This document shows, one piece after another, positions 135 to 64,000 of a stretch of DNA of 64,000 nucleotides. The translations under genes were made by a program, and so were the position numbers. The stretch comes from a virus (lineage: Duplodnaviria > Heunggongvirae > Uroviricota > Caudoviricetes), in the IMG/VR virus record IMGVR_UViG_3300033463_000007, positions 159,865-223,864 of that record. The stretch is one strand, 5' to 3'. The notes beneath the pieces are model-generated. The model was given only the letters and a program-made list of their open reading frames with translations, made no database searches and was not told where the DNA came from. Position 1 is the stretch's first letter. Every line of letters starts with the position of its first letter.

Positions 135-1187
135 ATGGTAACTAATAATATACAAATGGCATTTGGTGCTTTAAAGCCAAAAAAAGATATTCGAGAATTT
201 AAGGCTATTACAAACAAAGCTGCGCAAGTTGTTGATATTCCAGATGAATTTGAATTAACTATGCCTCCTGTTAAATCACAAGGACAAGTAGGTAGTTGTG
301 TAGCTCATTCAATTTCTCTTGCTATAGAATATTATAATAAGTTGCAAGAGGAAACTGACATAACTTTTAGTACTGGATATATATATGGTAACAGACGAAA
401 TCAACGTGGGCATAACGGAAGCGGTATGTATGTTGATGCAGCACTTAGTGCTGTTGTTAAATGGGGAGATGTAGCTAAAGATAAATTTTCTGAAAATATA
501 GAAGTTCCAGAAGCTATTACATTGTTTGAAGAGCGTGCTTTTGATTTAGCTCCAGAAGCCTACCCGAATAGATTTACGGAATATTTTGCGCTTAAATCTG
601 ATGAACAAATTAAGTTAAATCTTATGCAAAATGGACCAGTTGTTTTTAGTATTCCATGATATAAGGATTATGCTGTAGAGGCAAAAACATATATATTAAA
701 ACATACTAATAATGCAACATCTGGCGGTCATTGTATGGTTATTTATGGCTGAAATAAGGATGGTTGAAAATTTCAAAATTCTTGGGGCACCTCTTGGGGA
801 AATAGGGGTCGTGCCATTTTGCCATATGGAACCAAAATGTCCACTTGTTATGGCATTAAAGATACAATTATGGCAAGAGCACATGAGAAACAATTAGCAG
901 AATTAAAAGAAAAGTTAGAGAAATTAACAGAAAATTTAGAAAATAAAGAAAAAGAATTACAAAAAACTATAGAAAAATTAAAAGTTCTTGATAAGAATAA
1001 TGCAGAACAAGCAGAAGAGCTTCAAGAACTTAAAGAATCTAAAACAGCTCTTACTAAAGAAATTAATAGTTTACAAAAACAGATTAAAGAATTGCAGATA
1101 CAAAATGAACAACTTGAAAGCCTAAGAGCAGAATTATTTGCAATTAAGAAACCATTTGAAAAAATGCCAAAATGATTAGTAAAAATA
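135..1187 (+). CDS. Papain-like (C1 family) cysteine peptidase with C-terminal coiled-coil; contains in-frame TGA codons read as Trp
   Basis: QGQVGSCVAHS Cys motif, GGHCMVIYG-W-NKDG-W-KFQNS-W-G His/Asn region where the three W are TGA; ORFs 135..659 and 819..1175 are in same frame and joined only if TGA is sense; coiled-coil KEKLEKLTENLENKEKELQK tail. Confidence 0.65.
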
Positions 1188-1240
1188 ATTAATGCTATTC
1201 TTAATTTATTTAATTAATTTATAAATGGAAGGTTAGTTAT

Positions 1241-2413
1241 ATGAGTATTGTTATTAATAATAGATCATATAATAATATAGATGCACTGAGAGTAAAATCT
1301 TTAGAAGATGGGGGATCTATTTCAGAAAAATGATTTTATTCTGCTGATAAGTCTCAGGCAAAAATAGGTGAACCATCTTCTTCTGAAATTAAAATAATTA
1401 CTCCGGATGTTAATTACGTATCATTGAGTCAAGTCACCATTCCGCAAATTAACTCTGTTAATTTAGACCCTTCTAAAATTCAGGCTGGCCAAACGATTAC
1501 AATTGGCTGAGCAGGGAATCCGGCTGCTTTATATTCTATCACTGGTACATATACTAATGATGCCACAGCAACAGAATATGATATTCGTAAGGGTAAAATT
1601 GCCTATGTAAAAGGGCAGCGATTAGTTGGTGTATTAACAAGTAGTGGCAGCGCCGGAGAAGAAACTTTAAAAATATCTTCTCTTGCACAATACCCGACAC
1701 GAAACGGTGAGGGTTATTATGACTATGCACAAATTCTGGATGATTCAGATGTAACTGGTTTAAAAGCAGAAAATATTGTTTGTGGAAAAACAATATTAAC
1801 TGATCTTTATGGCACTTTTGGTTCTTTAGCAATTCCATCACAAGCAGCAGATGAGGCTAGTATTCTAGAGGGTAAAGTAGCAAACGTCTATGTTTATAAT
1901 GAGGAAACAGGTGAAGAATCTCTGAGAACAGCTGTAGGTACTATTAGGACTTGGCCTGAAACAGTTTATAATCCTGATAAAAATAATGATAGAACAATTC
2001 CAGCCCAAAGATATATTGCTGAAGACTTAGTAATAAAAAAAGTTAATATAGGTCCCGTGGATTCACAAACACAACAGGTGACTGCTAATCAAATGTTAGC
2101 AGGTACTTCTTTGGCAGTCGGCTATGATGGCACGCCAGAGGGTCTTCTTAGTATAACTGGCACCATTCCCACAAATCCAAACTCTGGTTATACTATTACC
2201 CCGGGTACTTCATCAATAACACTTTCTGGCCCATCTTATATTAGTTCTGATATTACAATTATAGGTGATACCGATTTAGTTACTAATAATATACTGGAGG
2301 GTATTACTATTTTTGGTGTTACCGGAACTCTAAAATCAGAGGAGACTATTTATACAGAATTATGAACAAGAATATATGGTACTCCAGAGCCTGTGGCTGA
2401 AGCTATATTTTAA
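1241..2413 (+). CDS. Tail fibre-like repeat protein (TGTYT module family)
   Basis: RBS GGAAGG upstream of ATG; continuous frame through 4 TGA codons; repeated motif ITGTYTNDATATEYDIRKGKIAYVKGQRLVG shared with neighbouring genes. Confidence 0.5.
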
Positions 2414-2460
2414 ACTAAAAATAGTTTTCTAATAGATAATATTAAAAGGATATTAAAAAT

Positions 2461-5400
2461 ATGCCAACAAATAAAGAAAACTTTATAAATAAATTAAATA
2501 CCCTAGCTGATGCTGTTAAGACCAAGAGACCACTAGCTGAGGGTACGGATTATACTATTAATAATATTGTTGATGCAATTAGTAGTTGGGAGCTTAGACG
2601 AGCAGAAGAAAGCCCAACAGTTGATTTAGATTTATCTAATGGCAATCAGGTAATTATACCTACTGTAAGTGGTAATGTCTTATCTCAGGTCACTATTCGG
2701 CAACCGGTAGATCAGGAAGGCCATAATATATTTATTTCTGATAATATTAGGTCTGGAATAACTCTTGGAAATGTAACCGGAACTTATACAGCTGTAAATG
2801 AGAATGCTGTAACAGCTGCAGATATAAGATTTAATAAAAAAGCCTTTGTAAATGGTAGCGATGTAATAACTGGTTCCATGTCAGATTATAGTGGAACTAC
2901 TTTAATTGTTCCAACTTTTACAAATGGTACACCCTCACAGTCATCAACATCCCATATAGCTACACAAAATACTTTTGTAACAAGTAATATTAATTATGCA
3001 AATATTTGGTATTCAAATTTAGACCCCACAAAGATTCTTAATGGTGAAACAGTCAATATTGGCACTACTGATGATATTAGTACACCAAAAGTTACTGTTA
3101 CTGGTACTTACACTCCAGCAGTTGAAACTCTAATTCTTGACCAACCAAATGAACCCGGTGGTTTAAAACTTAATTATCAAAATACAGTTGGTTATGATTT
3201 ACCAGTACAAATTTTAACACACAGCCAAGGTAAATTAATAGAACAAGTTATATTATATCGTCCTGAAAATCTTATACCGGAAAATATTAAATATAATATA
3301 CCTATTGCAGGTACTGCTGGTACCTTTACAAGTAGTTCTACTGTTTCCAGTGGACAAATTGCGGCAACAGCTGATAAAATACGTTCTGGTTATTCCGCAT
3401 GGGTAAATGGTACTGAAATACAAGGTTCAATACCTAATAAAAGTGCAGAGGTTTATAATCCAACTATTGCATCGTCAAGTTCCGGCACAGCCACTTTAAA
3501 TCCTATAACAATTAGTTCTGGTCAATACTTAACTGGAAATCAAACGATTACAGCGACAGAGGTAAGAGGGTTAAATCCTGAATATATTGTTTCTGGGCAT
3601 AGCATTCAAATTGGCTATACACAAAATGATACTTTTAGACCAATTCATACAACACAAGGCTCTTACACAGGTATTGCTTCAGAATATATTGAGCCAACAG
3701 CTATAGAGTTTAATGAATTAATTTTCCGCACTACTACAAGTGGAATTACGATAGATTCAGATGTTGTAGTAAATCCAGAACCTGGGCATGCTTTTAGTCA
3801 GGTTAAAATTAAAAGGCCAACTGATATGTCTGCAGTTGCTGCAAAAATTGCTTATAATCAAACTATACACGGTATTTCTGGTACATTTTCTTATGAAGCA
3901 AATAATTCTATAACTGCCAGTTCAATTAGAAATGGCAAAGTTGGTTTTGTTAATGGTAATAAAATTATCGGTACAATGCTTGAGCGTGATGTCGGTAATA
4001 TTGGACTTTCTACTACAGATTATACAATAGCAGCAAATCAATATTTAGCAGGTGCTCAGACAATTTATGGTGCCAGAATAACAACCACGGATACTGGCGG
4101 TACAATAGCTGTTAATGATTTTAATGCTTTAGCCGGATTACTTGTTAAAGATGTAACTTTAGATATTGGTGATACTGGTGATACTGATAGACTTGCTCAT
4201 ATTGTTGGTACATATGATAACCAAAAACCGGAAGAAGTTGGAAATGTAACATTAAATTTCTGAGATTCAACACATTCAACTTATTATGATCAATTAGACA
4301 TTAATCCAAGCACACAAAATACAGTTTTTTCTCATGTTTTAATAAATAAACCAGCGACTTTAATTAAAGGAAATATTGCATCTGGAGTTTCTATCGCTGG
4401 TGTTACAGGTACTTATACAAATGATGCAAATGCAACATCAAGTGACATTTATCCTGGCAAAACTGCTTATGTACAGGGCACTAAAGTTTCTGGCAGCATG
4501 CAAACACGTGCCGCTGCAACAATTTATCCGAGTGCTTCAGACCAAACAATTGCTTCAGGTCGTTATTTAACTGGTACTCAAACAATAAAAGCAACGACTG
4601 TTAAAGCATATGACCCAGTATTACAAGAAACTGTTCCGTTAGATCCTGATTATATTATTAAGGGTGTTGTTGTAAAAGTTGGTGATGAAGTTAATAATGC
4701 TCGTGTTGCTAGTATAACTGGTACTTTCGATTATACTGAATTTATTGAAGGTCCAAGAGAAGTTGATTTATCATTAGCTTCTGGCAATCAAACTATAAAT
4801 CCAGAGGCCACTGGATATTCAATGAGCCAAATAATAATTAAGAAGCCCGTAAATTTATTAGCTAGTAATATTAAAAAAGATGTTGAAATTGCAGGTATTA
4901 CTGGAACATTTGAAGAAATAAAAGTATTAGAAATAGATGCAAATTACAATTCAGCATCAACTATTAATCTCACTACTGCACAAAAGAATGTTTTTACTTC
5001 TTTGGCTTTAGGTAGTACTATTAAATTAAAATTTACACAATCTAATAGTATTAAATATTTTACTAAAACCTATTCAAGCACCTCCGGTAGTGAAACATTT
5101 ATTGTTCTTACTGCACCAATTTCAAATGATTTTGAATGAAGTAATACTAAATATATTAGAACAAAAACTGAATTATGTTATATTGCTATTGCTAATAATA
5201 CAGCAGAATTACATTTGGTATATAAACAAGGCTCGTCTGCTGCTTTATTAGGTGAAATTAGGCCTAATACTGATCTTGTATTAGACCCAAGCACTGAAAC
5301 ACGTATTTATGATTATACAGATGCTACAATAGGTATTCCTACATCATTAACGGTTACAGGTCTTGCTTATACAGCTGTTCAACCAGAGCAGCTTTTACAG

Positions 5401-5688
5401 GGGACAACATTAAATATTGGAACCGCAGCGGATCCAGATGCGGTTTATACTGTAACAGGTACTGCTATATCAGAATATGACTTATATTCATTATTAAATA
5501 ATGCTAAATGGGGTAATTCTGGTGATCTTGCAGGTACAACTGTATTATTCTCTAATACACCTGAGCTCACAAATATTGGTACTAAAGCAGTTACATTTAC
5601 AGCTGGCTCTGATAACTATACAAGTTTAACAATTAATAATAATGAAATTAAATATAATGATACTCGTGTATATGGCGAAGCTGAGTAA
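2461..5688 (+). CDS. Large tail fibre / receptor-binding repeat protein (~1075 aa) formed by ORFs 2461..4263, 4498..5139 and 5215..5688 joined through TGA=Trp
   Basis: All three standard-code ORFs are in the same frame and separated only by TGA codons (4261, 5137); repeated x-I/V-TGT-Y/F-T beta-strand motifs; ends with TAA. Confidence 0.55.
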
Positions 5689-5703
5689 AGGAGAAATATA
5701 AAT

Positions 5704-7116
5704 ATGGCAAAAAGTTGACTTGCTGGAGCTTCAAAAAAAATTACGATAACTGGCGGAAATGACAGTACAAATACAGATATATTAAAATATATGCAATTAA
5801 ATGCAGGCTGAATACAAACACTAGCTACACCAGTATTATCATTAACAGACTTAGCTATTACTTGGCCAAGTGTAACTAATAGGACCTCTTATACTGTTTA
5901 TGTTAATAATCAGTCCTATCAAGATCAAGTAATGATAAATTCTTTTGATATATCAGACTTTACACCCGGGACTTATTCAATTACAGTAAAAGCTATTGGA
6001 AGTACTTATTATCAAGACAGTTCATTAAGTACACCTTTTGTATATACATACTTAACTGCTCCAACAAATCTTGCAATAACAAATGATACAACATTATCTT
6101 TTACAGGTTCTTCTGGTGCAACTCATTATAGAGTTATTGTAGATTCTGAGACAATTCTTGGTATTTGTAATAGTTCTCCAGTTGACTTAGCTAGTTTTCA
6201 AGGCTGGGGTAATCTGACAGCAGGTGGTCATACAGTACAGTTACAAGCATTTGCTGATAATGCACGAGATAGTCAAGTTTCAACGGGTGTATTAGTTAGA
6301 ACTGGTGGTTATAATTTAACAGTTTCTACTTGACAAGAATCTGGTGAAGATAGTGGTCAATTTCAAGTTTTATATTCAGATAACTCCTCTGCTTGAGTTG
6401 GCTCTGGTACAACTAAGCATGTTTTACAAGTACTAGACTATAGATATACTTGAGATTATCAACAATCTTGAGAAATTAATGATGCCCAGCCATCATTACC
6501 TTATACACTTGCTGCAAATGCCTCTGCCTCAGTTTATTCTGAATCAAGTGGTGGCGGTGGGACCTGCTTTATTGCTGGTACACAAATAACTCTTGCTGAT
6601 GGTACCACAAAAGCTGCTGAGGATATTACTTATGATGATTCTTTGTTAGTTTGAAATTTCTATACTGGTACTTTTGATACAGCTAAACCCTTATGAATTA
6701 AGAAAGAAGAATTATCACCCTGTTATAATTTAGTCACTTTTGACAATGGTAAAACAATTGGTTTTGTTGGACCTGGACAAGAGATCGGTTATCATAGAAT
6801 TTATAATAATGAAGCTAAACAATTTACACATACTGGTGTAGCTGATACACCGGTAGGTACAACTTCTTTTGATGTTTTTGGACAGCAACCAAAAATAGTA
6901 AGTCAAGAAGTTAAATGAGAAAGAGTAAAATATTATAATATAATAACAGATAAATACTATAATTTATTTACAAATAATATTTTAACTTCTTGTATGCTAT
7001 CTAATGAATATGAAATATTAGATAATATGACTTATAATATAAATAATAGATATTTAACAGATAAACAAATTACTGATTATCTACAAAAAATTGAGGATTT
7101 AAGACGTCCAAATTAG
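5704..7116 (+). CDS. Structural protein with fibronectin-III-like repeats and C-terminal Hint (intein/hedgehog-like) domain
   Basis: ATG with RBS AGGAGAAATATAAAT upstream; many in-frame TGA; motif GGGGTCFIAGTQITLADGTTKAAEDITYDD is a classic Hint block A; ends TAG at 7114. Confidence 0.45.
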
Positions 7117-7129
7117 AAAGGATATTATA

Positions 7130-7579
7130 ATGGTTTATATTTTAGAAGGTACACATGGAGTTGGTAAAACCGAACGAAGTACAACTTTTGGAGTTCCTGT
7201 TGCAAATATTAGAAATGATACTCGTGCAAGAAATATTACACAAGTAACCTCATTACTTAATAGTTATATTAATATAGATGCTGTATTTGATAGATTTTTT
7301 ATGCTATCTTTTCCAGGAGAAGATCATGATAAAAGGGTCTCCCAATGTATTGCAATTAATAATTATTTAAAAACTAGATCTGATGTAACTTGTATTTTAT
7401 ATATCTGTGACCGCGAAGTTGCTTGACAAAGGTATCAAAATACAGAACATCCAATTGAGCGACGCGTTGATAGAGCTGGTTTTGATGCAGCTTATAATTG
7501 ATATCAAGAAATTATTCCATATATGGATGCTTTTCAAATAATAGATACCACCAATGCCAGCAGTCATCATTCTGGCTAA
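7130..7579 (+). CDS. P-loop nucleoside/nucleotide kinase-like protein
   Basis: Walker A GTHGVGKT near N-terminus; two in-frame TGA (W) extend ORF 7130..7426 to TAA at 7577. Confidence 0.4.
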
Positions 7580-12428: not shown

Positions 12429-13370
12429 ATGTATAGTAAATTGGCAATTACCACAGACACCTATACAGGCTGAAAAAAGTGGTCACCCACACAGGAAGAA
12501 CTTGGAAAATTCTATGAAACTTCAGAGCTTCCTTTTCAGTTATTTGAAAATGAGTATTTAATAATTTATGATGATGAAAATTTACCAACTTATTATTGTT
12601 ATGAAAAAGGTAGATTGCGGCCATTTAAAGGAGGTTCAATTAAAACAATTCATGATACCCCACCAGAAGACGAGCTTAATATTGAAACTGGTGGCTCAAA
12701 AAAACGCAAGACAAAAAAATATTCAAAAGGAAAACAGACTATAATATATCCACGTAATGATGAACAAGTATGCGCTTTTGACTTATTAAGGGATAATACA
12801 AAAACAATAAAATTATTATTAGGTGTATGAGGATCTGGTAAAGATTTGCTGATGGCAAATTCAGCACTAGAGGCCTTACGGCTTGGAAAATACGAAAAAA
12901 TTATTTGGTTAAGGAATAATGTAAGAACAAAAGATACACCGGATTTGGGTGCCCTTCCTGGTGAAGTTTGAGATAAATTGTGTGCTTATGTAGGTCCATT
13001 TATTGACTCAGTTGGGGAAGATTCTGTAAAGACTATGTTACAAAAAGGTACATTAAAAGTTGAACCTTTACAGTCTATCAGAGGACGTAATTTCAGTGAT
13101 AGTATAATTATTTGTTCTGAAGCTGAAAATTTAACTTATGATCATTTAAAATTAATTGTTGCTAGAGCAGCTGAAAATAGCTGCATTATGATAAACGGTG
13201 ATCTTCGCCAACGTGATTTATCTATTTTTGAAAGGTCACAAGGCTTAGAAAAATTTATAGAGTGCTTAAAAGGCGAGCCTTTATTTGGTTATGTTTATTT
13301 ACCGAAAACAGAACGTAGCGCAACAGCAAGATTAGCCGATAAATTAGATGCCTTTGAATTTAAAGATTAA
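12429..13370 (+). CDS. phoH: PhoH-like ATPase
   Basis: RBS AAAGGAG + ATG 12429; ORFs 12615..12830 and 12978..13370 same frame joined by two TGA (GV-W-GSGKD Walker A, GEV-W-DKL); C-terminal MINGDLRQRDL PhoH motif. Confidence 0.6.
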
Positions 13371-14691: not shown

Positions 14692-14700
14692 TATAAAATT

Positions 14701-14717
14701 TATTGTATAATATATTG
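14701..14717 (+). promoter_or_regulatory. Extended -10 promoter (TTGTATAATATA) driving the intron-containing suppressor tRNA
   Basis: TGnTATAAT extended -10 consensus; same motif recurs upstream of >12 genes. Confidence 0.5.
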
Positions 14718-14811: not shown

Positions 14812-15175
14812 GGAAGAATCGTTAAACGGTATGACCGCGGTCTTTAAAAGTAAATAGTAGCTAACTACTTATGGAGCACTTAATTAGAAATAATTAATGT
14901 GAATGTGGGCTAATTCGGTAAAGGTTAGAGAATGCCGAGCTAAATTGAATAAACAGGTGCTACGAGAACCGGATTAAGATCTTATGAAAGCTTATTAGGC
15001 ATCCTAGAGTGCTGTAGTTAAATGGTGTTAGATGAACAGCCTGTTATTTATAAATGTGTAGAGAACATATACCCACAACCTACGTCTTTATAAGATAAGG
15101 TTAAGACATGTTCCAATAAGATTAAATTCTTATGCAAAACCGCTTTTCTGGGTTCGAATCCTAGTTCTTCCGCCA
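14812..15175 (+). tRNA. Intron-containing suppressor tRNA-Trp(UCA): 5' exon 14812-14844, intron 14845-15134, 3' exon 15135-15172 plus encoded CCA
   Basis: Acceptor GGAAGAA/TTCTTCC perfectly paired across 360 nt; D-arm GTTA-AACGGTA-TGAC; anticodon stem GCGGT/ACCGC; splice positions fixed by U at exon end and G at intron end; spliced loop CUUCAAA (E. coli tRNA-Trp is CUCCAAA); T-arm CTGGG-TTCGAAT-CCTAG; discriminator G73 (Trp identity). Confidence 0.6.
14845..15134 (+). ncRNA. Group I-like intron (290 nt, no ORF) in anticodon loop of tRNA-Trp(UCA), inserted between nt 34 and 35
   Basis: Contains P-like GCTAATTCGGTAAAGG and Q-like AATGCCGAGC and S-like AAGATAAGGTT elements; insertion site identical to cyanobacterial tRNA-Leu(UAA) group I introns. 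Confidence 0.45.
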
Positions 15176-15212
15176 AAAGGAACTTTATTTAATATAAAGT
15201 TCCTTTTTATTT
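15176..15212 (+). terminator. Rho-independent terminator after tRNA
   Basis: AAAGGAACTTTATTTAATATAAAGTTCCTTTTT hairpin plus T-run. Confidence 0.6.
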
Positions 15213-17141: not shown

Positions 17142-18131
17142 ATGCAAAGAATGTTATCAGGAATAAAACCTACCGGAACTCCTACTTTAGGAACTTATTT
17201 AGGTGCAATTTTACCCTTTATAAGATACCAAAATGAATATGAGCTATTTATTTTTATTGCAGATTTACATGCCTTAACAACTTGTCAAAATGCTAAAGAA
17301 TTAAGAGATAATATTAATTTATTAGCTAAGATTTATCTAGCTGCTGGATTAGATTGTGGACAAAATAAAACTGTATTATTTAAGCAATCTGATGTATTAC
17401 AACATAGTCAGTTAAATTGGATTTTAAGTAATTATACACTAATGAGTGATCTTGAAATGATGACTCAATATAAACAAAAATGTCAGCAACTTGCAGCTAG
17501 ACAAGGAGTTAATGTATCTTTATTTACTTATCCTGTTTTAATGGCTGCAGATATTTTACTTTATAATACAGATTTAGTGCCTTGTGGTCAAGATCAAAAA
17601 CAACATATAGAATTAACACACGAGCTTGCCCGAAAATTTAACTCTATGTATGGTGAAACTTTTAAACTACCAAAGCCATATATAACCAAAACCGGCGCTA
17701 AAATAATGAGTTTATCTGACCCGACTAAAAAAATGAGTAAATCAGAGTCAGATAAAGGAACAATTTATTTAACTGATACTAAGGAAGTTATTTTTAATAA
17801 ATTTAAAAAAGCTGTCACTGATAGTGAAGGAAAAATTTATTATAATCCAGAAACTAAGCCTGGAATAAGCAATTTACTTACTATTTATGCTGCAATAAAA
17901 GATATTTCTATTCAAGAAGCTGAAAATATATTTAAAGATGAAAAAGATTACGGTAAATTTAAAAATGAAGTAGCTCAGATAGTTTGGCAATATTTAGATA
18001 CATTACAGTATAATATAAAACAAATTTCTGATAAACAAATATTTTTAACATTAGATGATGGTCAAAAACAGGCAGCTAAAATTGCATCAGAAACTCTATC
18101 CAAAGTATACAAAAAGGTGGGATTAAGATAA
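17142..18131 (+). CDS. trpS: Tryptophanyl-tRNA synthetase
   Basis: Class I aaRS: N-terminal MLSGIKPTGTPTLGTYLGAI, KMSKS motif KKMSKSESDKG; 329 aa; no TGA codons. Confidence 0.85.
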   Translation: MQRMLSGIKPTGTPTLGTYLGAILPFIRYQNEYELFIFIADLHALTTCQNAKELRDNINLLAKIYLAAGLDCGQNKTVLFKQSDVLQHSQLNWILSNYTLMSDLEMMTQYKQKCQQLAARQGVNVSLFTYPVLMAADILLYNTDLVPCGQDQKQHIELTHELARKFNSMYGETFKLPKPYITKTGAKIMSLSDPTKKMSKSESDKGTIYLTDTKEVIFNKFKKAVTDSEGKIYYNPETKPGISNLLTIYAAIKDISIQEAENIFKDEKDYGKFKNEVAQIVWQYLDTLQYNIKQISDKQIFLTLDDGQKQAAKIASETLSKVYKKVGLR

Positions 18132-18134: not shown

Positions 18135-19196
18135 ATGTTTGATAGGCTTGAAAGTATATTAAATAAATATGATGAGCTTTCAATGAAATTAAGTTCTTCA
18201 GAAATTATTTCAAGTAATTTATATCAGCAATATAGTAAAGAGTTAGCAGATATTCAAGAAATTGTTGATACTTATTCTGCTTATAAAGACGCACAGGATT
18301 ATTTAGAACTACTTAAAGAAGATGAAGCTAAAAATACTGATTTGGAATTAAAAGTACTATATAATAGTGAAATTAAAGAAACTCAAAGTAAATTATCAGA
18401 GCTAGAAAATAATTTAAAATTATTATTATTGCCAGCTAACAAGGATGATTCCAAAAATATTATTATGGAAATTCGTGCAGGAGTTGGCGGAGATGAAGCA
18501 GCTATTTTTGCAGCAGATCTTTTTAATATGTATTTAAAATATACACAAAAACAAGGTTGGAATGTTTCAGTTAGTAGCTATACTGAAGGTGTTCTAGGTG
18601 GTTTTAAGGAAATTATCTTAAGTATTTCTGGTAAAAACGTTTATCAAAAATTAAAATATGAAGGTGGAGTACATCGGGTACAACGAGTACCAGAAACTGA
18701 GGCTAGAGGCAGAATTCATACATCAACAGCAACAGTTGCAGTACTTCCAGAAAGAACAGAAACAGAAGTTATAATTGATCCAAAAGATATTACTATTGGT
18801 TTATTTCATTCCGGTGGGGCTGGTGGTCAAAATGTAAACAAAGTTGAAACAGGTGTACGTATAACACATATTCCTACCGGAATGGTAGTTGCTTGTCAAG
18901 AAGAGCGGTCACAGCTACAAAACAAAGAACGTGCTTTTGAAATATTGCGCGCAAAGTTATGGGATTATTATAATACTCAAAATATTAATTCTGAAATAAA
19001 CCAACGAAATAGTATGATTGGTACTGGTGATAGATCAGAAAAAATTCGAACTTATAATTTTCCGCAGCATCGTATAACCGACCATAGAATTAATTATACT
19101 ACTTATAATATAGAAGAAGTATTACAAGGTAATTTAGATGATTTAATTGAACATTTACAAATTGCAGAAAATGCAAAATTGTTAATTAATCAATAA
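18135..19196 (+). CDS. prfA: Peptide chain release factor 1
   Basis: GGQ motif (SGGAGGQNVNKVETGVRITHIPTG), PxT-type tripeptide region RVPETEARGRIHTSTATVAVLPE, C-terminal HRINYT; 353 aa; no TGA codons. Confidence 0.85.
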   Translation: MFDRLESILNKYDELSMKLSSSEIISSNLYQQYSKELADIQEIVDTYSAYKDAQDYLELLKEDEAKNTDLELKVLYNSEIKETQSKLSELENNLKLLLLPANKDDSKNIIMEIRAGVGGDEAAIFAADLFNMYLKYTQKQGWNVSVSSYTEGVLGGFKEIILSISGKNVYQKLKYEGGVHRVQRVPETEARGRIHTSTATVAVLPERTETEVIIDPKDITIGLFHSGGAGGQNVNKVETGVRITHIPTGMVVACQEERSQLQNKERAFEILRAKLWDYYNTQNINSEINQRNSMIGTGDRSEKIRTYNFPQHRITDHRINYTTYNIEEVLQGNLDDLIEHLQIAENAKLLINQ

Positions 19197-19232
19197 GATT
19201 AAAAGAGCCTGTTTTAGCCAGGCTCTTTTTTA
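19197..19232 (+). terminator. Rho-independent terminator after prfA
   Basis: AAAAGAGCCTGTTTTAGCCAGGCTCTTTTTTAT hairpin, followed by TTTGCTAAATTATATAG motif. Confidence 0.6.
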
Positions 19233-19269
19233 TTTGCTAAATTATATAGTAAATATGGAGGATTTTATT

Positions 19270-20127
19270 ATGTTAAAATTTAAAGTACCAAAGCAACAAG
19301 ATTTAGATTTAGATCAGTTGATTTTTGATAGAATTACTTTTGGCAATACACAACCATCACCAAAAGATGATCGAGATTATATTGCGCAAGCTAAAGATTG
19401 ATCTAAAATAAAATTTCCAAAAGAATATAGAGCACCAAAAACAGAAGTTTTAAATCAAGAAAATTATGGGTCTTGCGTAGCTCATTCTTGCGCCACCGCT
19501 TTAGCCCAAGGAGAACAACTTATTTCAAATACCCACAATAATTATTCTCGCGGTTATATTTATGGTAATAGAAAATCAACTGACTTGCAAACTGAGGGTA
19601 TGATTGTTAGGCAGGCATTAAAGCAACTACATAATTGTGGAGATGTTCTATATGATGATTTTCCATATAATAAAACTTATCCTATGGTAAAAGCTTTAAT
19701 TGATATTGATAGAGAATATTTAGCAAATAAAGCAAAGCAGTATACTATTTTTGATTTTTATAGGTGTTGTGATGAAAATCAGTTAAAAGATGCTATTATA
19801 TCCTCCGGTGCAGTTATAATTGTAGTTCCTGTTTATAGTGATTTTGCCCGTGATTTACATAAAACTCAATCATGGGAACTCCGAGGCTATCATGCAATGG
19901 CTTTAGTTGGTTGAACTGCTGATAAATGAATTGTACAGAATTCTTGAGGCTTAGAATGGGGTTATGATGGTTGTTTATTAATGGATATGGATTATCCCAT
20001 AATTGAAAGCTGAGGCATAACCGTTAATAAGGAACTTAAAAAGTCACTTTGATATAGAATAAAAACAATTTTTAAACAATTTTGAAATTGAATTAAATAT
20101 ATCTGAAATAAAATATTTAAAAAATAA
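19270..20127 (+). CDS. Papain-like (C1) cysteine peptidase, paralog of 135..1187
   Basis: NYGSCVAHSCATALAQ Cys motif, GYHAMALVG-W-TADK-W-IVQNS-W-GLE-W-GYDG with W=TGA; ORF continuous only under TGA=Trp. Confidence 0.6.
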
Positions 20128-20216
20128 TTTGCTAAATTAATTAGTAATGCAGTAACTGTAAAAAATCTATTATTAGCTGCATTAGTTTAATAATTAGAGG
20201 AGAGATTTAGAAATAA

Positions 20217-20663
20217 ATGGATACTTGATTAGTAACTATAATTTCATTAATCGGGAGCACTGCATTATCAACAATAGTTGGCTTAATTATAAAAAACAGC
20301 GTCTCTAAAAAAATGGATGAACAAAAAGAATTACTTGAACTTCGTGAATCTAAAGGGCATCAAGAGCGTAAGCAAGAAATGACAGAAATTATAAAAGCTG
20401 AGTTATTACCCGTTACACAGCAGCTTGATTCATTATCAGAAGCAATAAAAAAGAATAATGCCGGTACTGTTACATTATTAAGAGAGAGCTTAAAGCAATC
20501 CAGAGATCATTTAATGGAAAAAGGAGTTGCCACTGCCTCTGAAGTTGCAAGTTGACATGAACTATATAATACTTATGCAAAGCTAGGCGGAAATAATTTT
20601 AAAGATTATGTTGATGCTTGAAAAGATGATGTAGATGGGCTACCAAGAGAAAAAAGTAAATAA
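20217..20663 (+). CDS. N-terminal transmembrane protein with charged coiled C-terminus (holin-like / lysis accessory)
   Basis: MDT-W-LVTIISLIGSTALSTIVGLII TM segment; three TGA=W; preceded by TTTGCTAAATTAATTAG motif. Confidence 0.35.
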
Positions 20664-49775: not shown

Positions 49776-50181
49776 GGGGGTGTAAAGGTTTCGACAGGGT
49801 TAAGAAAGTGATAGTATACGCAGGAGTTATTCACCTTACGAATCGGTAATTTAAAATAAACGACAATACAATTGTTACTTTTAGTCCTTTCTTAATTAAT
49901 GCACTCTCTTCTATGAGGGCTGCTGCTTAAGATATTATAGGCGCCAAAACAATACGCTGGTGATCAAGCAAGTATTTGAGGTCAAAGAACGGGTCACATA
50001 AAGTTGTCCAACTTTAAAATGGACTGGTGGAGACGGATAAAACCGGCGCAACTCATTTAATATATTGAATTTGCTTATTTTACATTATATTAAATTATTT
50101 TATTAAATAAGCTAGTGCGTAAGTATTATACTATTTTAGTATTAATTTTGGACAGGGGTTCGATTCCCCTCACTTCCACCA
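49776..50181 (+). ncRNA. ssrA: tmRNA (ssrA) with long tag ending -AAA
   Basis: 5' GGGGGTGTAAAGGTTTCGACAGGG (cf. E. coli GGGGCUGAUUCUGGAUUCGACGGG), 3' GGACAGGGGTTCGATTCCCCTCACTTCCACCA; acceptor with G3:U70; tag ORF ...GAC AAT ACA ATT GTT ACT TTT AGT CCT TTC TTA ATT AAT GCA CTC TCT TCT ATG AGG GCT GCT GCT TAA = (N)DNTIVTFSPFLINALSSMRAAA. Confidence 0.75.
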
Positions 50182-50185
50182 ATGT

Positions 50186-50261
50186 CTGGGTGTAATTCAG
50201 TTGGTAGAATGCGTGATTTGGGATCACGATGCCGGATGTTCAAGTCATCTCACTCAGACCA
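50186..50261 (+). tRNA. tRNA-Pro(UGG)
   Basis: CTGGGTG-TA-ATTC-AGTTGGTA-GAAT-G-CGTGA-TTTGGGA-TCACG-ATGCC-GGATG-TTCAAGT-CATCT-CACTCAG-A-CCA. Confidence 0.7.
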
Positions 50262-50271
50262 TAGGCTCATT

Positions 50272-50347
50272 GGAGCTCGTCCTCGACGATATTGAGGGCA
50301 CGCCTTATAAGCGTGTACATAAGGTTTGACTCCTTAGGGCTCTACCA
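50272..50347 (+). tRNA. tRNA-Ile(UAU)-like
   Basis: GGAGCTC-GT-CCTC-GACGATATT-GAGG-G-CACGC-CTTATAA-GCGTG-TACA-TAAGG-TTTGACT-CCTTA-GGGCTCT-A-CCA; D-loop lacks GG and pos 8 is G, so lower confidence. Confidence 0.4.
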
Positions 50348-50403: not shown

Positions 50404-51191
50404 ATGAATTTATTTAAATGCTACCTATCCGACAGTAAGTGATATAAAGAAGCCGTAAGAAATGGTCAACCCATTGGAATTCTTTGACATGACACTGCTG
50501 CTGGAAACCCAAACTTAAAACGTTATGTCCAACCAAATGAATCAGATCCAGATTATGATAAGCTTATGGCAATGCTTGGAAAGAATCAATATAATAATTC
50601 TTGACAGCATTCTACCATGAATAAAGGTGTAAATGCTTTTATTGGTAAACTAGAAGATGGCTCGGTTGCAACAGCTCAATTAGGTGAATGAGATATTCAT
50701 GCTTGAGGTTGTGGGGGCGGAAATAAAGGCTCCTGTAATGGTTATACTATTGTAAATGGTAAAACAACTTGAGTTGAACCTTTTTGGATTCAATTTGAAA
50801 CTTGCGACGACTTTTATACTGATAAAAGCTACTTTGAAGCGGTCTATAAAGAAGCTTGTGAGTTTACAGCTTATATTTGTAAGCAATTTAATATTGATCC
50901 AAATGGTACCGTAGAGTTTAATGGTGTTCAGGTACCTACTATTTTATGTCATGCAGATAGCTATAAGCTTGGACTTGGAAATGATCATGGTGACGTTTTA
51001 GTATGATTTAAAAAGTTTGGTAAAACTATGGATGATGTAAGAAGAGATGTGGCTGCTATCTTACAAGAAGAAAAAGAAAAAGATGATAAAGATAAAGACG
51101 ATGAAGAAATAGATGAAAATACATTTCTCAAATGCTTTAAAATAGTCATCAAATTTATTAAACAGCTCTGGTATAGCACAAATAAAAAGTA
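50404..51191 (+). CDS. N-acetylmuramoyl-L-alanine amidase (Amidase_2/PGRP-like endolysin); 9 in-frame TGA=Trp
   Basis: GIL-W-HDTAAGNP, HA-W-GCGGGNKGSCNGY, PTILCHADS zinc-ligand pattern; completely fragmented in the standard-code ORF track. Confidence 0.65.
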
Positions 51192-51198
51192 AAACTTT

Positions 51199-53101: not shown

Positions 53102-53896
53102 ATGGCATATGGTTTTATTTATAAAATAATAACTACAGCTTCTAATAAAGTTTATATTGGACAAACAACTAGAACTATTGAAGAACGTTACCAAGAGCAT
53201 TTGAAAGCAAGAAATAGTAAAGATAAAAATACTTTACATTTATATCTTGCTATGAATAGGTATGGCGTTGATACTTTTAGTGTTGAAAAAATTGATGAAG
53301 CTAATACACAAGAAGAACTAAATCAAAAAGAAATATATTGAATTAATTTTTATGATTCAATGAATAATGGATATAATATGGCACCTGGTGGTAGCATAAA
53401 TATTTTTGAATCTGAAAAAGTTAGAAAAAAACATGCAGCAAGCATGCGTGATCCAAAAACACGAGAAAAAATTTCTAAAACAATGCATGAGCTTAGAACT
53501 ACTTTTGGCTTTTCTGAGGAACATAAAAAAAAGATACGTGAATCAAGTCGAAAGCGAAAAGAAGAACGGGCAAAGTTAGGTTTAAAATATTATGATGATT
53601 GTTCACATTGTGCAACTAGATCAAAAGCAGTTTATTGTATATTAGATACCGGTGAAAAATTTGAATTTGATTCTATTTTACACGCTGGTAAATGATGATA
53701 TGAAACATACAAACCCTTTGGTGAAACTTATTCTACTGCTACCTATCAAAGAAAAATTGAAGCCTCTATTGCGGGTAAAGAAATTATTTTCCAATCCGGA
53801 CATGACAGTAGAAGTCAAGGTAAAAAAAATATTATTATTAAAATAACTAATATAAAATGATTTTATAAAGATAATTGAAATGGAGGTGATGCCTAA
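53102..53896 (+). CDS. GIY-YIG homing endonuclease inserted within polA (intron-encoded)
   Basis: GFIYKIITTASNKVYIGQTTRTIEERYQEHL GIY-YIG motif; ORFs 53102..53341 and 53360..53695 same frame joined by TGA; preceded by GTGCTAAATTAATTAG motif and RBS GGAGG. Confidence 0.7.
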
Positions 53897-56216: not shown

Positions 56217-56687
56217 ATGAAACCAGACCTTGGAAAAAAATTTGAGGAGCTTTTTAAGTTAGACTGAAAAAGATGCTTTCCAGATACTTTTATTTTTAGA
56301 CTAAAAGATGATTTAGCTGGATTTAAAAATGCTAGTCAAAATCCTTGTGATTTTATGTGTTTTCCAGGAAACTACTTATTTTTAGTTGAAACCAAAGAAC
56401 ACCATGGCGCCTCGATCCCGTTTACAGCAATTCCTCAATATGAAAGATTATTAAAATATAAAGATTTACCAAATGTATATCCCGGTGTTATAATCTGATT
56501 TTCAGAAAAAGATCTAGTAATGTGAGTTAGCATCAATGATATGGAAAAAATGGTTTTAAATGGTGAAAAATCAATTGGAATAAGAATGCTAAAAAATAAA
56601 TTGTATAATATAATAGTTTTACCGTCAGTTAAAAAACGGGTATATTTAGAAGTTGATTATACACCTTTAATACCCAAGGAGGATTAA
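56217..56687 (+). CDS. PD-(D/E)xK nuclease (RecU-like Holliday junction resolvase candidate)
   Basis: PCDFMCFPGNYLFLVETKE D...E-x-K motif; 3 TGA=W. Confidence 0.35.
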
Positions 56688-56688
56688 T

Positions 56689-57210
56689 ATGACTGAAAAA
56701 TTGGAAAAAGCTAAACGTGAGGTTGATGAAACTTATAATTTATTATTAGAAGCCGTTAGAGATGTCACTGCACAATATACAGCTGAGCTTGATGGAATTG
56801 TTAAGGAATTATCAAAAGGAATTAATTTATTTTCTAATACAGAACTTTGGGATTTTCAAGTTAGACTAAGTATTGCTGCTTATGTTCTTGGTAATGCAAA
56901 AGAACAGAGCTCATTAAAAGAGGCTTGTGCAGAAGCTCTTTATAAAGAAAATTTAGCTCGTGCTTTTAATACTTCTGTAGGTACACAGGAAGCTAAAAAG
57001 CAAGCTTCAATTCTTGATTCTACAGATAAGCAAGCAATTTCTATGCTATATGCCTCTGTAGCAAGTCTATTAAAAACTAAATGTGATGAGGCTCATAGAC
57101 TGGTAAATGTATTACAAGGCATTCAAATTTCACGGGCTGCAGAAGCAAAAATTTCAGCAAGTCCAAGAAGTGAATCAGAACGACAAATTTTATTAGAAGA
57201 TATTAGATAA
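56689..57210 (+). CDS. Hypothetical helical protein
   Basis: 173-aa ORF. Confidence 0.35.
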   Translation: MTEKLEKAKREVDETYNLLLEAVRDVTAQYTAELDGIVKELSKGINLFSNTELWDFQVRLSIAAYVLGNAKEQSSLKEACAEALYKENLARAFNTSVGTQEAKKQASILDSTDKQAISMLYASVASLLKTKCDEAHRLVNVLQGIQISRAAEAKISASPRSESERQILLEDIR

Positions 57211-57223
57211 AGGAGAATAAATA

Positions 57224-58450
57224 ATGGCAGAAGTAAAACAATTGTCATTTAAAGATGTAGTTAAAAAAATTAATAAAGCATGCAAGGATTGAGATATTTT
57301 GGGTTCTGGTAATTTTTCTCAGAACTTAAAAAAATTGTCTCTAGGTACACTTGGTTTTGATTGTCCTTTTAAAGGTGGTTTGCCATATGGGCAAATTGTT
57401 ACATTTAGTGGTGTTGAGCACTCAGGAAAATCTACTGCAGCGGTACTTGCTATGGCTCAATACCAAAAAGAAAACCCAGATAAAATTTGTATCTATGTTG
57501 ATGCCGAAAATACACTTTTAACACAGTCTGATTATTTTCAATCAATTTCATCAATTAGTTATGATGAAAATCATTTTGTTAGATATGATTGTACAGGTAG
57601 ATCTGCAGAAGAAATTTTTCAGGATTTAATTATGCTTCAAGAAACTGAAGAAGTTGGTATGATTGTGATTGATTCTTCCAGAGCACTTATTTCACAAGCA
57701 GATCTTGATAATGAATTTGTAAAAGATAATGGACAACGAGCAAGTGTCGCAAAACCTATTGGTAAATTTATTAAACAAATGATGATGTATTTACCAAAAA
57801 GAAATAATATTCTGTTAATTATTAATCAGGTTACAGTTGAAAAAAGTTTATATGCCACTACTTATACTGAACCAGGTGGATATGCTTTAAAATATTTTCC
57901 ATCTCTAAAGGTTAGATTTGGTACCCGTACTTATACAGCTGGCGATAAAACTGATATTACACAGTCAAAGGTTGATGAAAAAGTTGATGGTATTAGGTTG
58001 CATTTTGCGATTGTTAAAAGCCGTTTGGGTGCAATTGGAAAAGACGGTGGTTTTATTACTATCCGTTATAATAGCGGAGTAGATACTGTTTTTGATCTAC
58101 TAGAAGTTGCATTAAAGGCTGGATTTATCAAAACACCCACTAATAAGTCTTATGTTCTAACTAATCTGTTAACCGGTGAAACTTATAGAGATGGCGAAAA
58201 TGAGCTTGTCTTTGAAGCAAGTCGTGGTGCTGATGCTTATGCTGCATTAGTAAATTATTTATGTAGTAATCCTGTTTTTGTTAATGAATATTCAAAAATG
58301 ATTAATGAATATTTATCACAAAACAAAGTTAAAGTTGATTTAATTGATGAACAGATTATTAATGATTTAATGAAACAAGAGAGTGAAATTATGGGTGACG
58401 TTGAAATGACTGATACTCAGGCGCTTGCTGCAGATGGAGTAGATGAATAA
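57224..58450 (+). CDS. RecA/UvsX-like recombinase
   Basis: GGLPYGQIVTFSGVEHSGKST Walker A, IVIDSSRAL Walker B region; one N-terminal TGA (CKD-W-DIL). Confidence 0.65.
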
Positions 58451-58454
58451 TAAA

Positions 58455-58847
58455 ATGAGTAATAGCTTTAGAATTCATAATACTGAAGATACAAAAAATC
58501 ATAGTACTCGTTGATATTCATCAAGACAGGAAGCAGTTGTTGCAAAAACTGTAGATGGCAAACAAATGCCGAATAGCGGAGCTACAACATTTCTTCCAGG
58601 AGATGTTAGTATTGATAATTTATTTTCACTTGAATGTAAAACAAAAACAACTAATTCAGAGTCTATTTCTGTTAAACGTGAATGGTTTGAAAAACAAATT
58701 AAAGAAACTATACAATCCGGAAAAAAATATAGTGCTGTAGTTATTAATTTTGGTCCAGATAATCCATATAACAAAAATTATTATATTATTGATGAGTATC
58801 TTTTTCAAGAGCTACTTGACTATTTAAAGGAAAAACCTAATGATTAG
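58455..58847 (+). CDS. Small PD-(D/E)xK-like nuclease candidate
   Basis: PGDVSIDNLFSLECKTK pattern; one TGA=W. Confidence 0.3.
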
Positions 58848-59205
58848 ACCCTATATTCAAAAACAGCTAAATAAATGTAGTTTTGCTAAACTTGATAATT
58901 TTGATACAAAAACAAATACTTATCATATTGCAAAGTATACAAAACCAAGATATGAAGTAGGTAAAGGTTATTTAATTAAAATTCCTAAATATCTAATTAA
59001 TAATAATACATCTATTTTAGCAACTAATTGAAATAGTGGTAGATCACCACAAAATGAATATTATAAAGCATATGTTAATAAATTTATGGGATCATATATT
59101 TATGTAGATTGTTTGGCTTATGATTACCAAAATCAGCAAGATTTATCAAGTATGTGGTTTGGTTGGCTTGATGTTAATGAACTACAGCAATTAAGTATTT
59201 TATAA
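58840..59205 (+). CDS. Hypothetical protein
   Basis: ORF 58840..59031 extended through TGA to TAA at 59203. Confidence 0.3.
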
Positions 59206-62351: not shown

Positions 62352-63290
62352 ATGGATTTAGAAAATTTTTCTTATTCAAAATTAGATACCTATACTCAAT
62401 GCCCATTTAAATTTAAACTAAAATATATTGATGGATTTTATTTTTATGCAGATTCTATAAATACGGAAATAGGGACTGCCGTTCATAAATGTGAGGAACA
62501 AATTGCTAAAGATATTCAGGCTCAACGAAATATAGACTATATAAAATATAAAAATGAGCTTTTATTAGTTTTAGCAGAATTAAAATATAAGTATCCAACA
62601 GAATTTTTTAACTTAGATAAATCTGGGAGAACTTTTGAACAAAAAATATATGAGTATCTAAATTATGGTATTTATAAACTAGAACAATATATGAAAGATC
62701 ATCCAACATATAAAATTGTTGGTATTGAGCAACCTTTTAAAGTAGTTTATAAGTCAGGTCAAAATTTAAATGGCTTTATTGATAGAATTTTTTATGATGA
62801 GGTATCACATAAATATATTATTCAAGATATAAAAACTTATGCAGTACCAATTGAAACTGAAAAATTAACTACACCACTTCAATTTGTAGTTTATACTTAT
62901 GCTGTTCAGGATTTATATAAATGTAAGCTAAGTCAAATAATTTGTCAGTATTATTTACCATTTTGTTCTATAACACAAACAGCTTGTACGACTGGTTATC
63001 TTTCACGAGGCGAAGCTAAAATAGATAAAATTTTTATAAATATTGCTGAGCAGAATTTTGAACCAAAGCCGACGCCATTATGTAATTGGTGTGAATATGC
63101 AGCTACTAATCCAGATGCTGGAGAAGAAAGTAAATTTAAATGCCCATATTTTTGTTATTGGGATCGTAATACTCGCAATTCTAAAGATATTACAAAATTA
63201 GAAAATAAATGGCAAGGATTAGAACAGCACAATAAAATTATGGAAAACTATTTAACAAAACATAATTTAAATAAAAAGGAGGTGAATTAA
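62352..63290 (+). CDS. PD-(D/E)xK nuclease with C-terminal 4-Cys cluster (Cas4/RecB-like exonuclease)
   Basis: N-terminal C at QCPFKF; NGFIDRIFYDEVSHKYIIQDIKTY (D...QDIK motif); C-terminal CNWCEY...KFKCPYFC Fe-S-like cysteines. Confidence 0.5.
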   Translation: MDLENFSYSKLDTYTQCPFKFKLKYIDGFYFYADSINTEIGTAVHKCEEQIAKDIQAQRNIDYIKYKNELLLVLAELKYKYPTEFFNLDKSGRTFEQKIYEYLNYGIYKLEQYMKDHPTYKIVGIEQPFKVVYKSGQNLNGFIDRIFYDEVSHKYIIQDIKTYAVPIETEKLTTPLQFVVYTYAVQDLYKCKLSQIICQYYLPFCSITQTACTTGYLSRGEAKIDKIFINIAEQNFEPKPTPLCNWCEYAATNPDAGEESKFKCPYFCYWDRNTRNSKDITKLENKWQGLEQHNKIMENYLTKHNLNKKEVN

Positions 63291-63476
63291 ATGGCAAAAG
63301 TAATTGTAAATCCAGAAGATGGCCTTGAAGCTGCACTTCGTAAGTTTAAGAAGCAAGTTATAAAAGAAGGTATTCTTGATGATCTTAAAAAGAAAGAATA
63401 TTATAAATCAAAGTCTGTAAAAAGACGTGAGAAGTCAAAGGAAGCAAGACGTAGACTTGAATTAGGTAAAAATTAA
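63291..63476 (+). CDS. rpsU: Ribosomal protein bS21
   Basis: MAKVIVNPEDGLEAALRKFKKQVIKEGILDDLKKKEYYKSKSVKRREKSKEARRRL aligns with bacterial S21 ([42 protein letters not shown]...). Confidence 0.7.
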   Translation: MAKVIVNPEDGLEAALRKFKKQVIKEGILDDLKKKEYYKSKSVKRREKSKEARRRLELGKN

Positions 63477-63489
63477 ATTATATGAATAC

Positions 63490-64000
63490 AAATATTTGTT
63501 ATGACATTTTAATAATTGGTGCGGGACCTGCTGGAATGACTGCTGCTATTTATGCTGGAAGATCTAATAAACAAGTAGCTTTAATTGACAAAAATGGTTT
63601 TGGTGGAAATATTGCCAATTCACCTAAAGTAGAGAATATTCCAGGTTTTGTTAGCATTTCGGGTGCAGATTTTGCAGCCAATATGTATGAGCAAATAAGT
63701 AATTTTTCAACTGTAAATCATATTATTGCAGAAGCATTATTTATAGACTATCGATATGGCTTGTTTAGAATTACACTAGATGATAAATCTATAATTTGCG
63801 GTAAAACATTAATTTTTGCTACCGGTACAGAACACAGGCAATTAAAATTAGATACTAAGGATATTTATTATTGCGCTACTTGTGATGGACCATTTTTTAA
63901 AAATAAAAATGTTATTGTGGTGGGATCTGGAAATACTGGTGCCACGTATGCCTTAGAATTATCTACCTATTGTAAAAATGTATATTTATGTGATTTAACA
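63490..64000 (+). CDS. trxB: Thioredoxin reductase-like flavoprotein (5' part; continues beyond window)
   Basis: YDILIIGAGPAGMTAAIYAGRS FAD-binding GxGxxG; CATCDG redox-active CxxC. Confidence 0.65.

Follow-up and report, generated by a model that had tools for sequence, protein, structure and literature searches.

The question raised by this locus is how a phage translates genes that are interrupted by TGA when it infects a host for which TGA is presumably a stop. The stretch considered here is a 64,000-nucleotide (nt) piece of a Caudoviricetes genome (IMG/VR record IMGVR_UViG_3300033463_000007, positions 159,865 to 223,864), referred to below, at its full length, as the window. We put a probability of about 0.8 on the following answer: the window belongs to a jumbo gut phage of ~232 kb that is related to the Jade phages and switches UGA from stop to tryptophan (Trp) while infecting a host of the Bacillota that uses the standard code, by means of a suppressor tRNA with the anticodon UCA, tRNA(UCA), whose gene is split by an intron. 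The genome size follows from the same proteins found on contigs of 231,970 bp (ENA) and 232,051 bp (JGI); the window crosses the ends of the ENA contig, so that we infer a circular genome from the coordinates. The window and its flanks together cover ~84 of the ~232 kb. The window has a GC content of 29.6%, with nearly all genes on the + strand. Proteins were annotated with Pfam and PHROGs, and RNAs with Rfam and ARAGORN.

Greedy non-overlapping calling of open reading frames (ORFs) was compared under code 11, with TGA as sense, and with TAG as sense for control. Code 11 gives 83 genes, a coding density of 81.1% and a median length of 174 amino acids (aa); with TGA as sense the window holds 76 genes at a density of 92.7% and a median of 226 aa, while the TAG control reaches a density of only 83.2%. 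Since density and gene length improve only when TGA is a sense codon, TGA is, by this prediction, read as sense in the phage, far beyond chance. An earlier reading of the letters alone (hereafter the sequence-only reading) had proposed this re-prediction under table 4 versus table 11 as a check, and the outcome agrees with it. During curation, five spurious ORFs were dropped (two over the tmRNA and tRNA-Pro genes, two over an initially missed DHFR gene) and the count leaves aside three TGAs that precede the probable true starts of g29, g47 and g58. This leaves 75 in-frame TGAs in 22 of the 76 genes; the earlier claim that genes here need TGA to be translated therefore stands, and its figure of at least 25 such genes does not. 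Every one of the 75 complete genes stops at TAA (68) or TAG (7), much as the same reading had said. The TGA at codon 169 of g17, five codons before the end, is sense because the orthologue in the relative L005 has TGG there; codon 191 of g58 is the sole possible TGA stop and is ambiguous.

The in-frame TGAs could in principle be pseudogene lesions or assembly errors, an explanation that we regard as refuted and to which we give practically no weight: the reading frames are kept, assemblies made independently of one another (ENA, JGI, Logan) contain identical proteins, and the TGA positions are conserved in relatives.

The residue can be read from alignments. The Amidase_2 lysin g65 (50404..51192, +; Pfam, homologue alignments) has 7 TGA and 2 TGG; among 119 homologues, Trp makes up 87-100% of the column at five of its seven TGA sites and ranks first or second at the other two. 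Homologous genes from 80 bacterial genomes, mostly of Clostridia, have TGG at five of the seven sites in 64-79 cases; an alignment with PDB gave no match for this protein. Three of the four TGA sites of the C1 peptidase g01 lie under invariant Trp columns. When the second C1 peptidase, g24, is compared with papain-like structures, the Trp of the NSWG motif and one more TGA correspond to Trp, and a third TGA to Tyr; in relatives, TGAs of g24 are exchanged for TGG. The claim that TGA marks conserved Trp positions thus holds for the amidase, for three sites of g01 and for two of g24; it had been extended to the NSWG Trp of both peptidases, which is right for g24 and wrong for g01, where this codon is TGG. 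Among orthologous codon pairs from three related phages, TGA in the window faces TGG in the relative 12 times and TGG in the window faces TGA 23 times; the remaining partners at TGA sites are hydrophobic (for example Phe, Val, Ile and Ala) and never Gly. One example given earlier has to be withdrawn. The PhoH-like ATPase g15 (12429..13370, +; Pfam, alignments) has three TGAs, one inside the Walker A loop (GV-W-GSGK), which was said to be a Trp of the family; the solved PhoH structure (PDB 3b85) has Ala at this position and phage orthologues have Phe or TGA, and to judge by these alignments it is a lineage-specific aromatic residue. Taken together, the alignments show TGA to stand for Trp.

Which tRNA reads it? 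Default ARAGORN and Rfam at the gathering threshold report only tRNA-Pro and tmRNA in the window, and no suppressor tRNA. Its gene was found by reading the 590-nt gap at 14692-15281, which contains two halves of a tRNA, with ARAGORN in intron mode and with Rfam on a narrower stretch; over 14500-17300, Rfam had missed the intron even at permissive settings. The 5' exon (14812..14844, +; GGAAGAAUCGUUAAACGGUAUGACCGCGGUCUU), read from the sequence, comprises tRNA positions 1-34 and ends in ...GGUCUU. It is followed by an insert of 290 nt (14845..15134, +) that lies between U34 and C35 and has G as its last base. The 3' exon (15135..15175, +; CAAAACCGCUUUUCUGGGUUCGAAUCCUAGUUCUUCCGCCA) comprises positions 35-76 with the discriminator G73 and an encoded CCA. 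A terminator-like hairpin with a T run stands right behind the tRNA (15175..15207, +), and an extended -10 promoter-like motif, TTATTGTATAATATATTG, stands before it (14700..14717, +). Put together, the two exons fold into a canonical 74-nt cloverleaf whose anticodon is UCA and which has G73 and CCA (ARAGORN); it is 70% identical to what we take to be the tRNA-Trp sequence of B. subtilis, a comparison that serves as a lead only. The interrupted gene is thus predicted to be the suppressor tRNA needed for the recoding, which the intron makes invisible to standard tRNA finders.

ARAGORN labels this tRNA 'SeC(tca)', and Gly would also be acceptable at the Walker A TGA of PhoH, so one may ask whether TGA instead means selenocysteine (Sec) or glycine, the latter being the code 25 that Absconditabacteria share with their phages. 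The alignments refute both, and we see next to no chance for either: the TGA columns are Trp with Phe, Tyr and other hydrophobic residues as alternatives, and Gly never occurs in them. Moreover, the tRNA is a 74-nt cloverleaf with 7/5 stems and a 5-nt variable loop, whereas a Sec tRNA has an 8/5 or 9/4 extended helix and a long variable arm; a gene for tryptophanyl-tRNA synthetase (TrpRS) adjoins tRNA(UCA); and 75 TGA sites, in lysins and tail proteins, are implausible for Sec.

The relatives, recovered through homologues of TrpRS, allow the split gene to be compared with an unsplit one. The relative L006, whose TrpRS is 80% identical, has an uninterrupted tRNA(UCA) at the syntenic site, with which the 5' exon of the window aligns base for base, and this intronless allele fixes the boundary of the intron. 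In L005 (TrpRS 81% identical) the exons are identical to the L006 tRNA at 74 of 74 positions and are split at the same point by an insert of 198 nt. Intronless tRNA(UCA) genes lie 0.5-3 kb upstream of TrpRS in L007, L020 and L021; that of L022 is non-canonical. The tRNAs of the window and L005 differ at four base pairs of the acceptor and T stems, each time by a compensatory change and never by a disruptive one, which implies that the interrupted gene stayed under selection for tRNA structure. A pattern scan for the exon junctions gave no match in IMG/VR and, in a metagenome collection, one true match (L012) along with seven chance matches; the same split tRNA is thus present in the window phage, L005 and L012, which come from independent samples.

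The insert is, as far as sequence and predicted folding allow us to say, a group I intron and predicted to splice itself. It matches the full Intron_gpI model of Rfam (RF00028) at 14857-15133 with 17.7 bits and E = 0.03, the gathering score being 50, and the match stops one base short of where the 3' splice site is predicted. Two other introns match it over the full length, also below the gathering score: that of 198 nt in L005 (30.4 bits, E = 3.7e-6) and one in the tRNA-Leu(UAA) gene of the phage contig L011 (31.6 bits, E = 2.1e-6). The splice sites read ...GGUCUU|UAAAAG...UUAUG|CAAAAC; a U precedes the 5' site, and the intron closes with a G. RNAalifold recovers P2, P3, P4/5 and P6. Compensatory changes are seen in P2 and in P6, and P6 of the window intron has ~90 extra nt. 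P7 (GAACAU/AUGUUC) and the P8 and P9 hairpins were assigned by inspection, the latter two differing in sequence between the window and the contig L008. The intron has no ORF.

Related introns are found in other phages. The core string GTGTAGAGAACATAYACCCACAACC occurs in four IMG/VR phage contigs (L008-L011), in which a related intron splits tRNA-Leu(UAA) at 34/35, and L105 is a fifth phage case of a group I intron in this gene. The P3/P7 core is common to the window intron and the phage tRNA-Leu(UAA) introns. The intron probably moved here from a tRNA-Leu(UAA) gene whose 5' exon also ends in CUU, and from these contigs it seems that group I introns in phage tRNA genes are a wider, little-described phenomenon. 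On the five contigs (L008-L011 and L105; IMG/VR, 41-252 kb) the split tRNA-Leu(UAA) genes sit in phage tRNA arrays.

The split gene might nevertheless be disabled, with suppression left to another tRNA in the 232-kb genome or to a modified host tRNA-Trp. The weak Rfam score of the window intron fits this, as do the part of the genome covered (~84 kb) and a survey in which only 35% of code-4 phages have suppressor tRNAs at all (bioRxiv 10.1101/2021.08.26.457843). We consider it unlikely, since a disabled gene would hardly keep intact exons with compensatory substitutions, an intron core conserved with relatives that score at E ~ 1e-6, and its own promoter-like motif and terminator, or recur in independent samples, L005 and L012 besides the window phage; nor was a second tRNA(UCA) found in the window or in the 10 kb on either side of it that were searched.

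Downstream of the functional split tRNA that we favour lie the other parts of the code-change module. TrpRS (g22, 17142..18131, +; Pfam tRNA-synt_1b, E = 4e-71) has no TGA and two TGG; its nearest named bacterial homologues are ~54% identical. Release factor 1 (RF1; g23, 18135..19196, +; Pfam PCRF and RF-1), with PET and GGQ motifs, likewise has no TGA and two TGG. A terminator-like hairpin (19201..19229) closes this part and is followed by the recoded lysis cassette g24-g28 (19234..23023, +; Pfam, PHROGs for the holin, codon counts), where TGA and TGG number 9 and 2 in the C1 peptidase g24, 3 and 0 in the membrane protein g25, 0 and 2 in the holin g26, and 8 and 0 in the CHAP lysin g28. The order is thus tRNA(UCA), TrpRS, RF1, hairpin and then the heavily recoded lysis genes, with endonuclease, methyltransferase-like and phosphoesterase genes in the ~2 kb between the split tRNA and TrpRS. 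The order of the module genes is the same in L005, L006 and L022 and rearranged in L007; tRNA(UCA) lies at most ~3 kb upstream of TrpRS in all relatives examined except the 4-kb fragment L023. That the genes for TrpRS and RF1 (trpS and prfA) are free of TGA, as had been remarked earlier, is true of the window and of every relative examined.

Directly downstream of the split tRNA, g18 (15282-15797, +) shows by eye an HNH-like CxxC...HIDGN...CPNC pattern and has no Pfam match. It is not present in L005 and L006, which have a GIY-YIG gene nearby; both are free-standing endonucleases beside the intron insertion site.

The distribution of TGA over the genes bears on the nature of the host. The use of TGA is bimodal (heterogeneity chi2 = 181, 65 df, p = 7e-13): 54 of the 76 genes, TrpRS and RF1 among them, have no TGA and hold 145 TGG. 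The share of TGA among all Trp codons is 78% in the lysis and peptidase genes (31/40), 57% in tail-like genes (16/28), 60% in homing endonucleases (12/20) and 8% in the enzymes of replication and other functions (9/119); TrpRS and RF1 have none (0/4, 0%). Lysis, tail-like and endonuclease genes together (59 TGA, 29 TGG) differ from replication and code-change genes (9 and 114) with p = 1e-20 (Fisher). The sequence-only reading had called the reassignment genome-wide, which is correct for the sense use of TGA and incorrect for its uniformity; the use of TGA is strongly modular.

This modularity speaks against an alternative in which the phage merely matches a code-4 host (Bacillota of the Mycoplasma or Spiroplasma kind, with UGA as Trp) and nothing is switched. 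The low GC content would suit such a host, and so would the nearest named bacterial TrpRS homologues, which come from Mollicutes-like metagenome-assembled genomes (MAGs). However, a host-matched phage should use TGA everywhere, and here 54 genes have 145 TGG to no TGA (the test above giving p = 7e-13); a code-4 host would already supply the tRNA(UCA), TrpRS and RF1 that the phage encodes; the peptidoglycan hydrolases that the phage encodes have their closest genomic relatives in walled Clostridia; and Acholeplasma and Anaeroplasma use the standard code. We therefore hold this alternative to be very improbable. In the Mycoplasmatales and Entomoplasmatales, code 4 rests on a tRNA-Trp with anticodon UCA and on termination by RF1 only; it is constitutive there, with TGA throughout, whereas here TGA is confined to modules and apparently imposed during infection. 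The earlier preference for phage-driven recoding in a standard-code host is accordingly supported by the modular use of TGA and by the phage's own tRNA(UCA), TrpRS and RF1 beside the lysis cassette. As for the host itself, the amidase relatives in Clostridia genomes and the sigma-A-like extended -10 promoters are hints from which we infer a standard-code, Clostridia-like host.

The promoters can be followed by the motif before the tRNA. TTATTGTATAATATATTG has 11 copies in the window with at most three mismatches versus 1.2 expected; sites on the + strand are 9267, 10006, 14124, 14700, 27046, 30395, 49731, 51226 and 59232. Exact copies precede tRNA(UCA) and tmRNA, and near copies precede the TGA-free genes g08, g10, g36, g66 and g75 as well as g17 with its single TGA; most of these are TGA-free genes for replication or of early type. 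The motif is a candidate for an early promoter class served by the host RNA polymerase, and since tRNA(UCA) has its own copy and its own terminator, it is probably transcribed by that polymerase.

With these parts the following course of infection can be proposed. TrpRS, RF1 and the other TGA-free genes, those for replication and nucleotide metabolism among them, could be translated by the unmodified host machinery. The precursor of tRNA(UCA), with its 290-nt group I intron, would be made from the host-type extended -10 promoter, and the intron would splice itself out between U34 and C35 to give a normal 74-nt tRNA. The phage TrpRS would charge this tRNA with Trp, the charged tRNA would outcompete release factor 2 (RF2) at UGA, and the phage RF1 would secure termination at UAA and UAG. 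Only afterwards would the TGA-rich late genes be made at full length: C1 peptidases, CHAP and amidase lysins, the membrane protein, tail-like proteins, homing endonucleases and resolvases. By way of speculation, ribosomes that run past UGA stops of the host once the code has switched could be rescued by the tmRNA of the phage.

Several observations weigh against this proposal or parts of it. TGAs occur in replication- or repair-like genes (PhoH, two resolvases, RecA-like), so the split into early and late genes is not clean. The recoding of single genes drifts: the g17 orthologues of L005 and L006 have six TGAs where the window has TGG (window 14167-14691 compared with L005 69-593 and L006 7011-7529), which means that the degree of recoding is evolutionarily fluid and not fixed by function. 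The window intron scores below the Rfam gathering threshold, and its P1 has only 3 bp (CUU/GAG), no convincing longer P1 being seen. The other ~148 kb of the genome may hold a second, uninterrupted suppressor tRNA. Among named bacteria, the nearest TrpRS homologues belong to MAGs of Acholeplasmatales, Anaeroplasma and Onthovivens, whereas the lysin points to Clostridia. Finally, the intron is dispensable, since L006, a close relative, has none.

As to the place of this phage among known systems, L007 is the Jade representative scaffold JS_HF2_S141_scaffold_159238. Proteins of the window and L007 are 41-78% identical (TrpRS 56%, RNA ligase/kinase 72%, PhoH 62%), and the relatedness to Jade rests on this identity and on synteny, there being no terminase in the window or the flanks. 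GenBank phages gave no similar record (megablast with 25 kb of the window as query) and, for RF1 (tblastn), distant matches only, on unannotated fragments; IMG/VR scans with the single proteins amidase and TrpRS found no relative. In two Jade phages described before, a recoded lysis cassette directly follows the genes for suppressor tRNA, TrpRS and RF1, all three in standard code, and the host is predicted to belong to the Firmicutes; the same work notes an early gene with a group I intron endonuclease that is recoded (bioRxiv 10.1101/2021.08.26.457843). Our phage is like them in its jumbo genome (at least ~200 kb), in TGA as Trp in structural and lysis modules spread over the genome, in the standard-code tRNA(UCA), TrpRS and RF1 upstream of the recoded lysis cassette, and in the predicted Firmicutes host. 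It is unlike them in that the suppressor tRNA is split by an intron and lies ~2 kb from TrpRS, and in that a full-length RF1 comes directly after TrpRS. The early-gene endonuclease is matched here by the GIY-YIG endonuclease g67 (53102..53896, +; 5 TGA, 0 TGG) between the two halves of DNA polymerase A. Because the Jade representative has the same module, the recoding is an already known system, and the intron-split suppressor tRNA is the new part. The window is unusual in holding a complete module (tRNA, TrpRS, RF1 and lysis genes) in one piece.

For the intron there are precedents of three kinds. Group I introns of the IC3 type are known from bacterial and plastid tRNA genes, especially tRNA-Leu(UAA) (PMC3984707). 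The present one resembles them in the 34/35 site, the U before the 5' splice site, the terminal G, the small size and the lack of an ORF, and differs in its host gene, which is a phage opal-suppressor tRNA and not a cellular sense tRNA. The same review, of 2014, places every phage group I intron known at the time in a protein-coding gene, although phages have many tRNA genes (PMC3984707); against this stand the intron in the suppressor tRNA and its relatives in phage tRNA-Leu(UAA). In recoded gut phages, mostly with TAG as Gln, theta ribozymes, which resemble that of hepatitis delta virus, adjoin suppressor tRNAs (PMC10879173); in both cases a self-processing RNA is coupled to the maturation of a suppressor tRNA and hence, potentially, to the code switch, but theta ribozymes cleave the 3' flank, whereas our intron is of another ribozyme class and sits inside the anticodon loop. 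Lastly, group I introns in the anticodon loop hide tRNA genes of Patescibacteria from standard tools (PMC13011429), just as the present tRNA escaped default ARAGORN and the Rfam tRNA model; those are cellular tRNA-Asn and tRNA-Asp split at 35/36, and ours is a phage suppressor tRNA split at 34/35. In the literature searched we found no suppressor tRNA interrupted by an intron and no report of a group I intron in a phage tRNA gene.

The intron may have a role in timing. If it gated the switch, UGA would become Trp only after the precursor, made from an early promoter of the host type, had spliced itself, and the onset of the lysis genes would be timed by a ribozyme. We give only a small chance to the joint proposal that ribozyme kinetics or the GTP/Mg2+ state time lysis-gene translation in this way and that split tRNAs explain part of the ~65% of code-4 phages without a detected suppressor. 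Since L006 lives without the intron, it is most likely a phenotypically neutral selfish element of the tRNA-Leu(UAA) intron family, the 'ribozyme gate' being less likely; the intron may add a delay in maturation, which the data do not demand. Alleles that occur naturally in an intron-bearing and an intronless form and do not differ in their exons provide a direct experimental handle on whether tRNA maturation times the switch. In published surveys most TGA-recoded phages have no detectable suppressor tRNA; part of this gap may be an artefact of annotation, which intron-aware tRNA searches could close.

The gene content of the window is as follows. For replication there are a family-A DNA polymerase, a DnaB-like helicase, a primase, topoisomerase II subunits and clamp-loader proteins; for nucleotide metabolism and RNA, thymidylate synthase, thymidine kinase, DHFR and RNA ligase/kinase; other products, besides TrpRS and RF1, are the two papain-like peptidases, the CHAP and Amidase_2 lysins, the holin and tail-fibre-like repeat proteins. 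The recoded genes outside the lysis cassette include the C1 peptidase g01 (4 TGA) with the tail-fibre-like or Hint-motif proteins g02-g05 (3, 2, 9 and 2 TGA; 135..7579, +; Pfam, alignments, codon counts), the homing endonuclease g34 (28431..29456, +; 6 TGA, 0 TGG; PHROGs phrog_655), and a group at 56217..59205 (+) with the Holliday-junction resolvases g70 (3 TGA) and g73 (1), the RecA-like g72 (1) and g74 (1).

The most recoded gene of the tail region, g04 (5704-7116, +; 9 TGA), has no match in Pfam or PHROGs, and its C-terminal CFIAGTQITLADGT recalls the N-terminus of a Hint domain or intein. A repeated motif, ..SQVTI.KP..L...NI...V.I.G.TGT.., is common to g02, g03, g06 and g07 (1241-9200, +); two of these four are free of TGA, so the recoding does not cover every structural-looking gene. 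The DNA polymerase consists of two ORFs, g66 and g68, parted by g67 (51229-55066, +). Rfam finds no intron around g67, and the C-terminus of g66 (CYCNDD...VGDEVETIDG) looks Hint- or intein-like by eye; a 'fractured gene' or a split-intein arrangement is possible.

An RNA cluster at 49776..50347 (+) comprises the tmRNA (49776-50181; 85.5 bits in Rfam), tRNA-Pro(UGG) (50186-50261) and a weak, non-canonical tRNA-Ile(UAU) (50272-50347); the last, a weak ARAGORN call, was considered as a suppressor and rejected on its identity. Ribosomal protein S21 (63291-63476, +) and a peptide deformylase just past the window (L002 19725-20480) are further translation-related phage genes, besides TrpRS, RF1, tmRNA and the tRNAs. 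A c-di-GMP-I riboswitch aptamer lies at 47139-47213 (+; Rfam 49.5 bits, above gathering), upstream of g60-g62 (47286-49695), two of which resemble signal-peptide proteins and contain TGAs; if the aptamer acts on them, g60-g62 would be a phage gene set controlled by a second messenger of the host.

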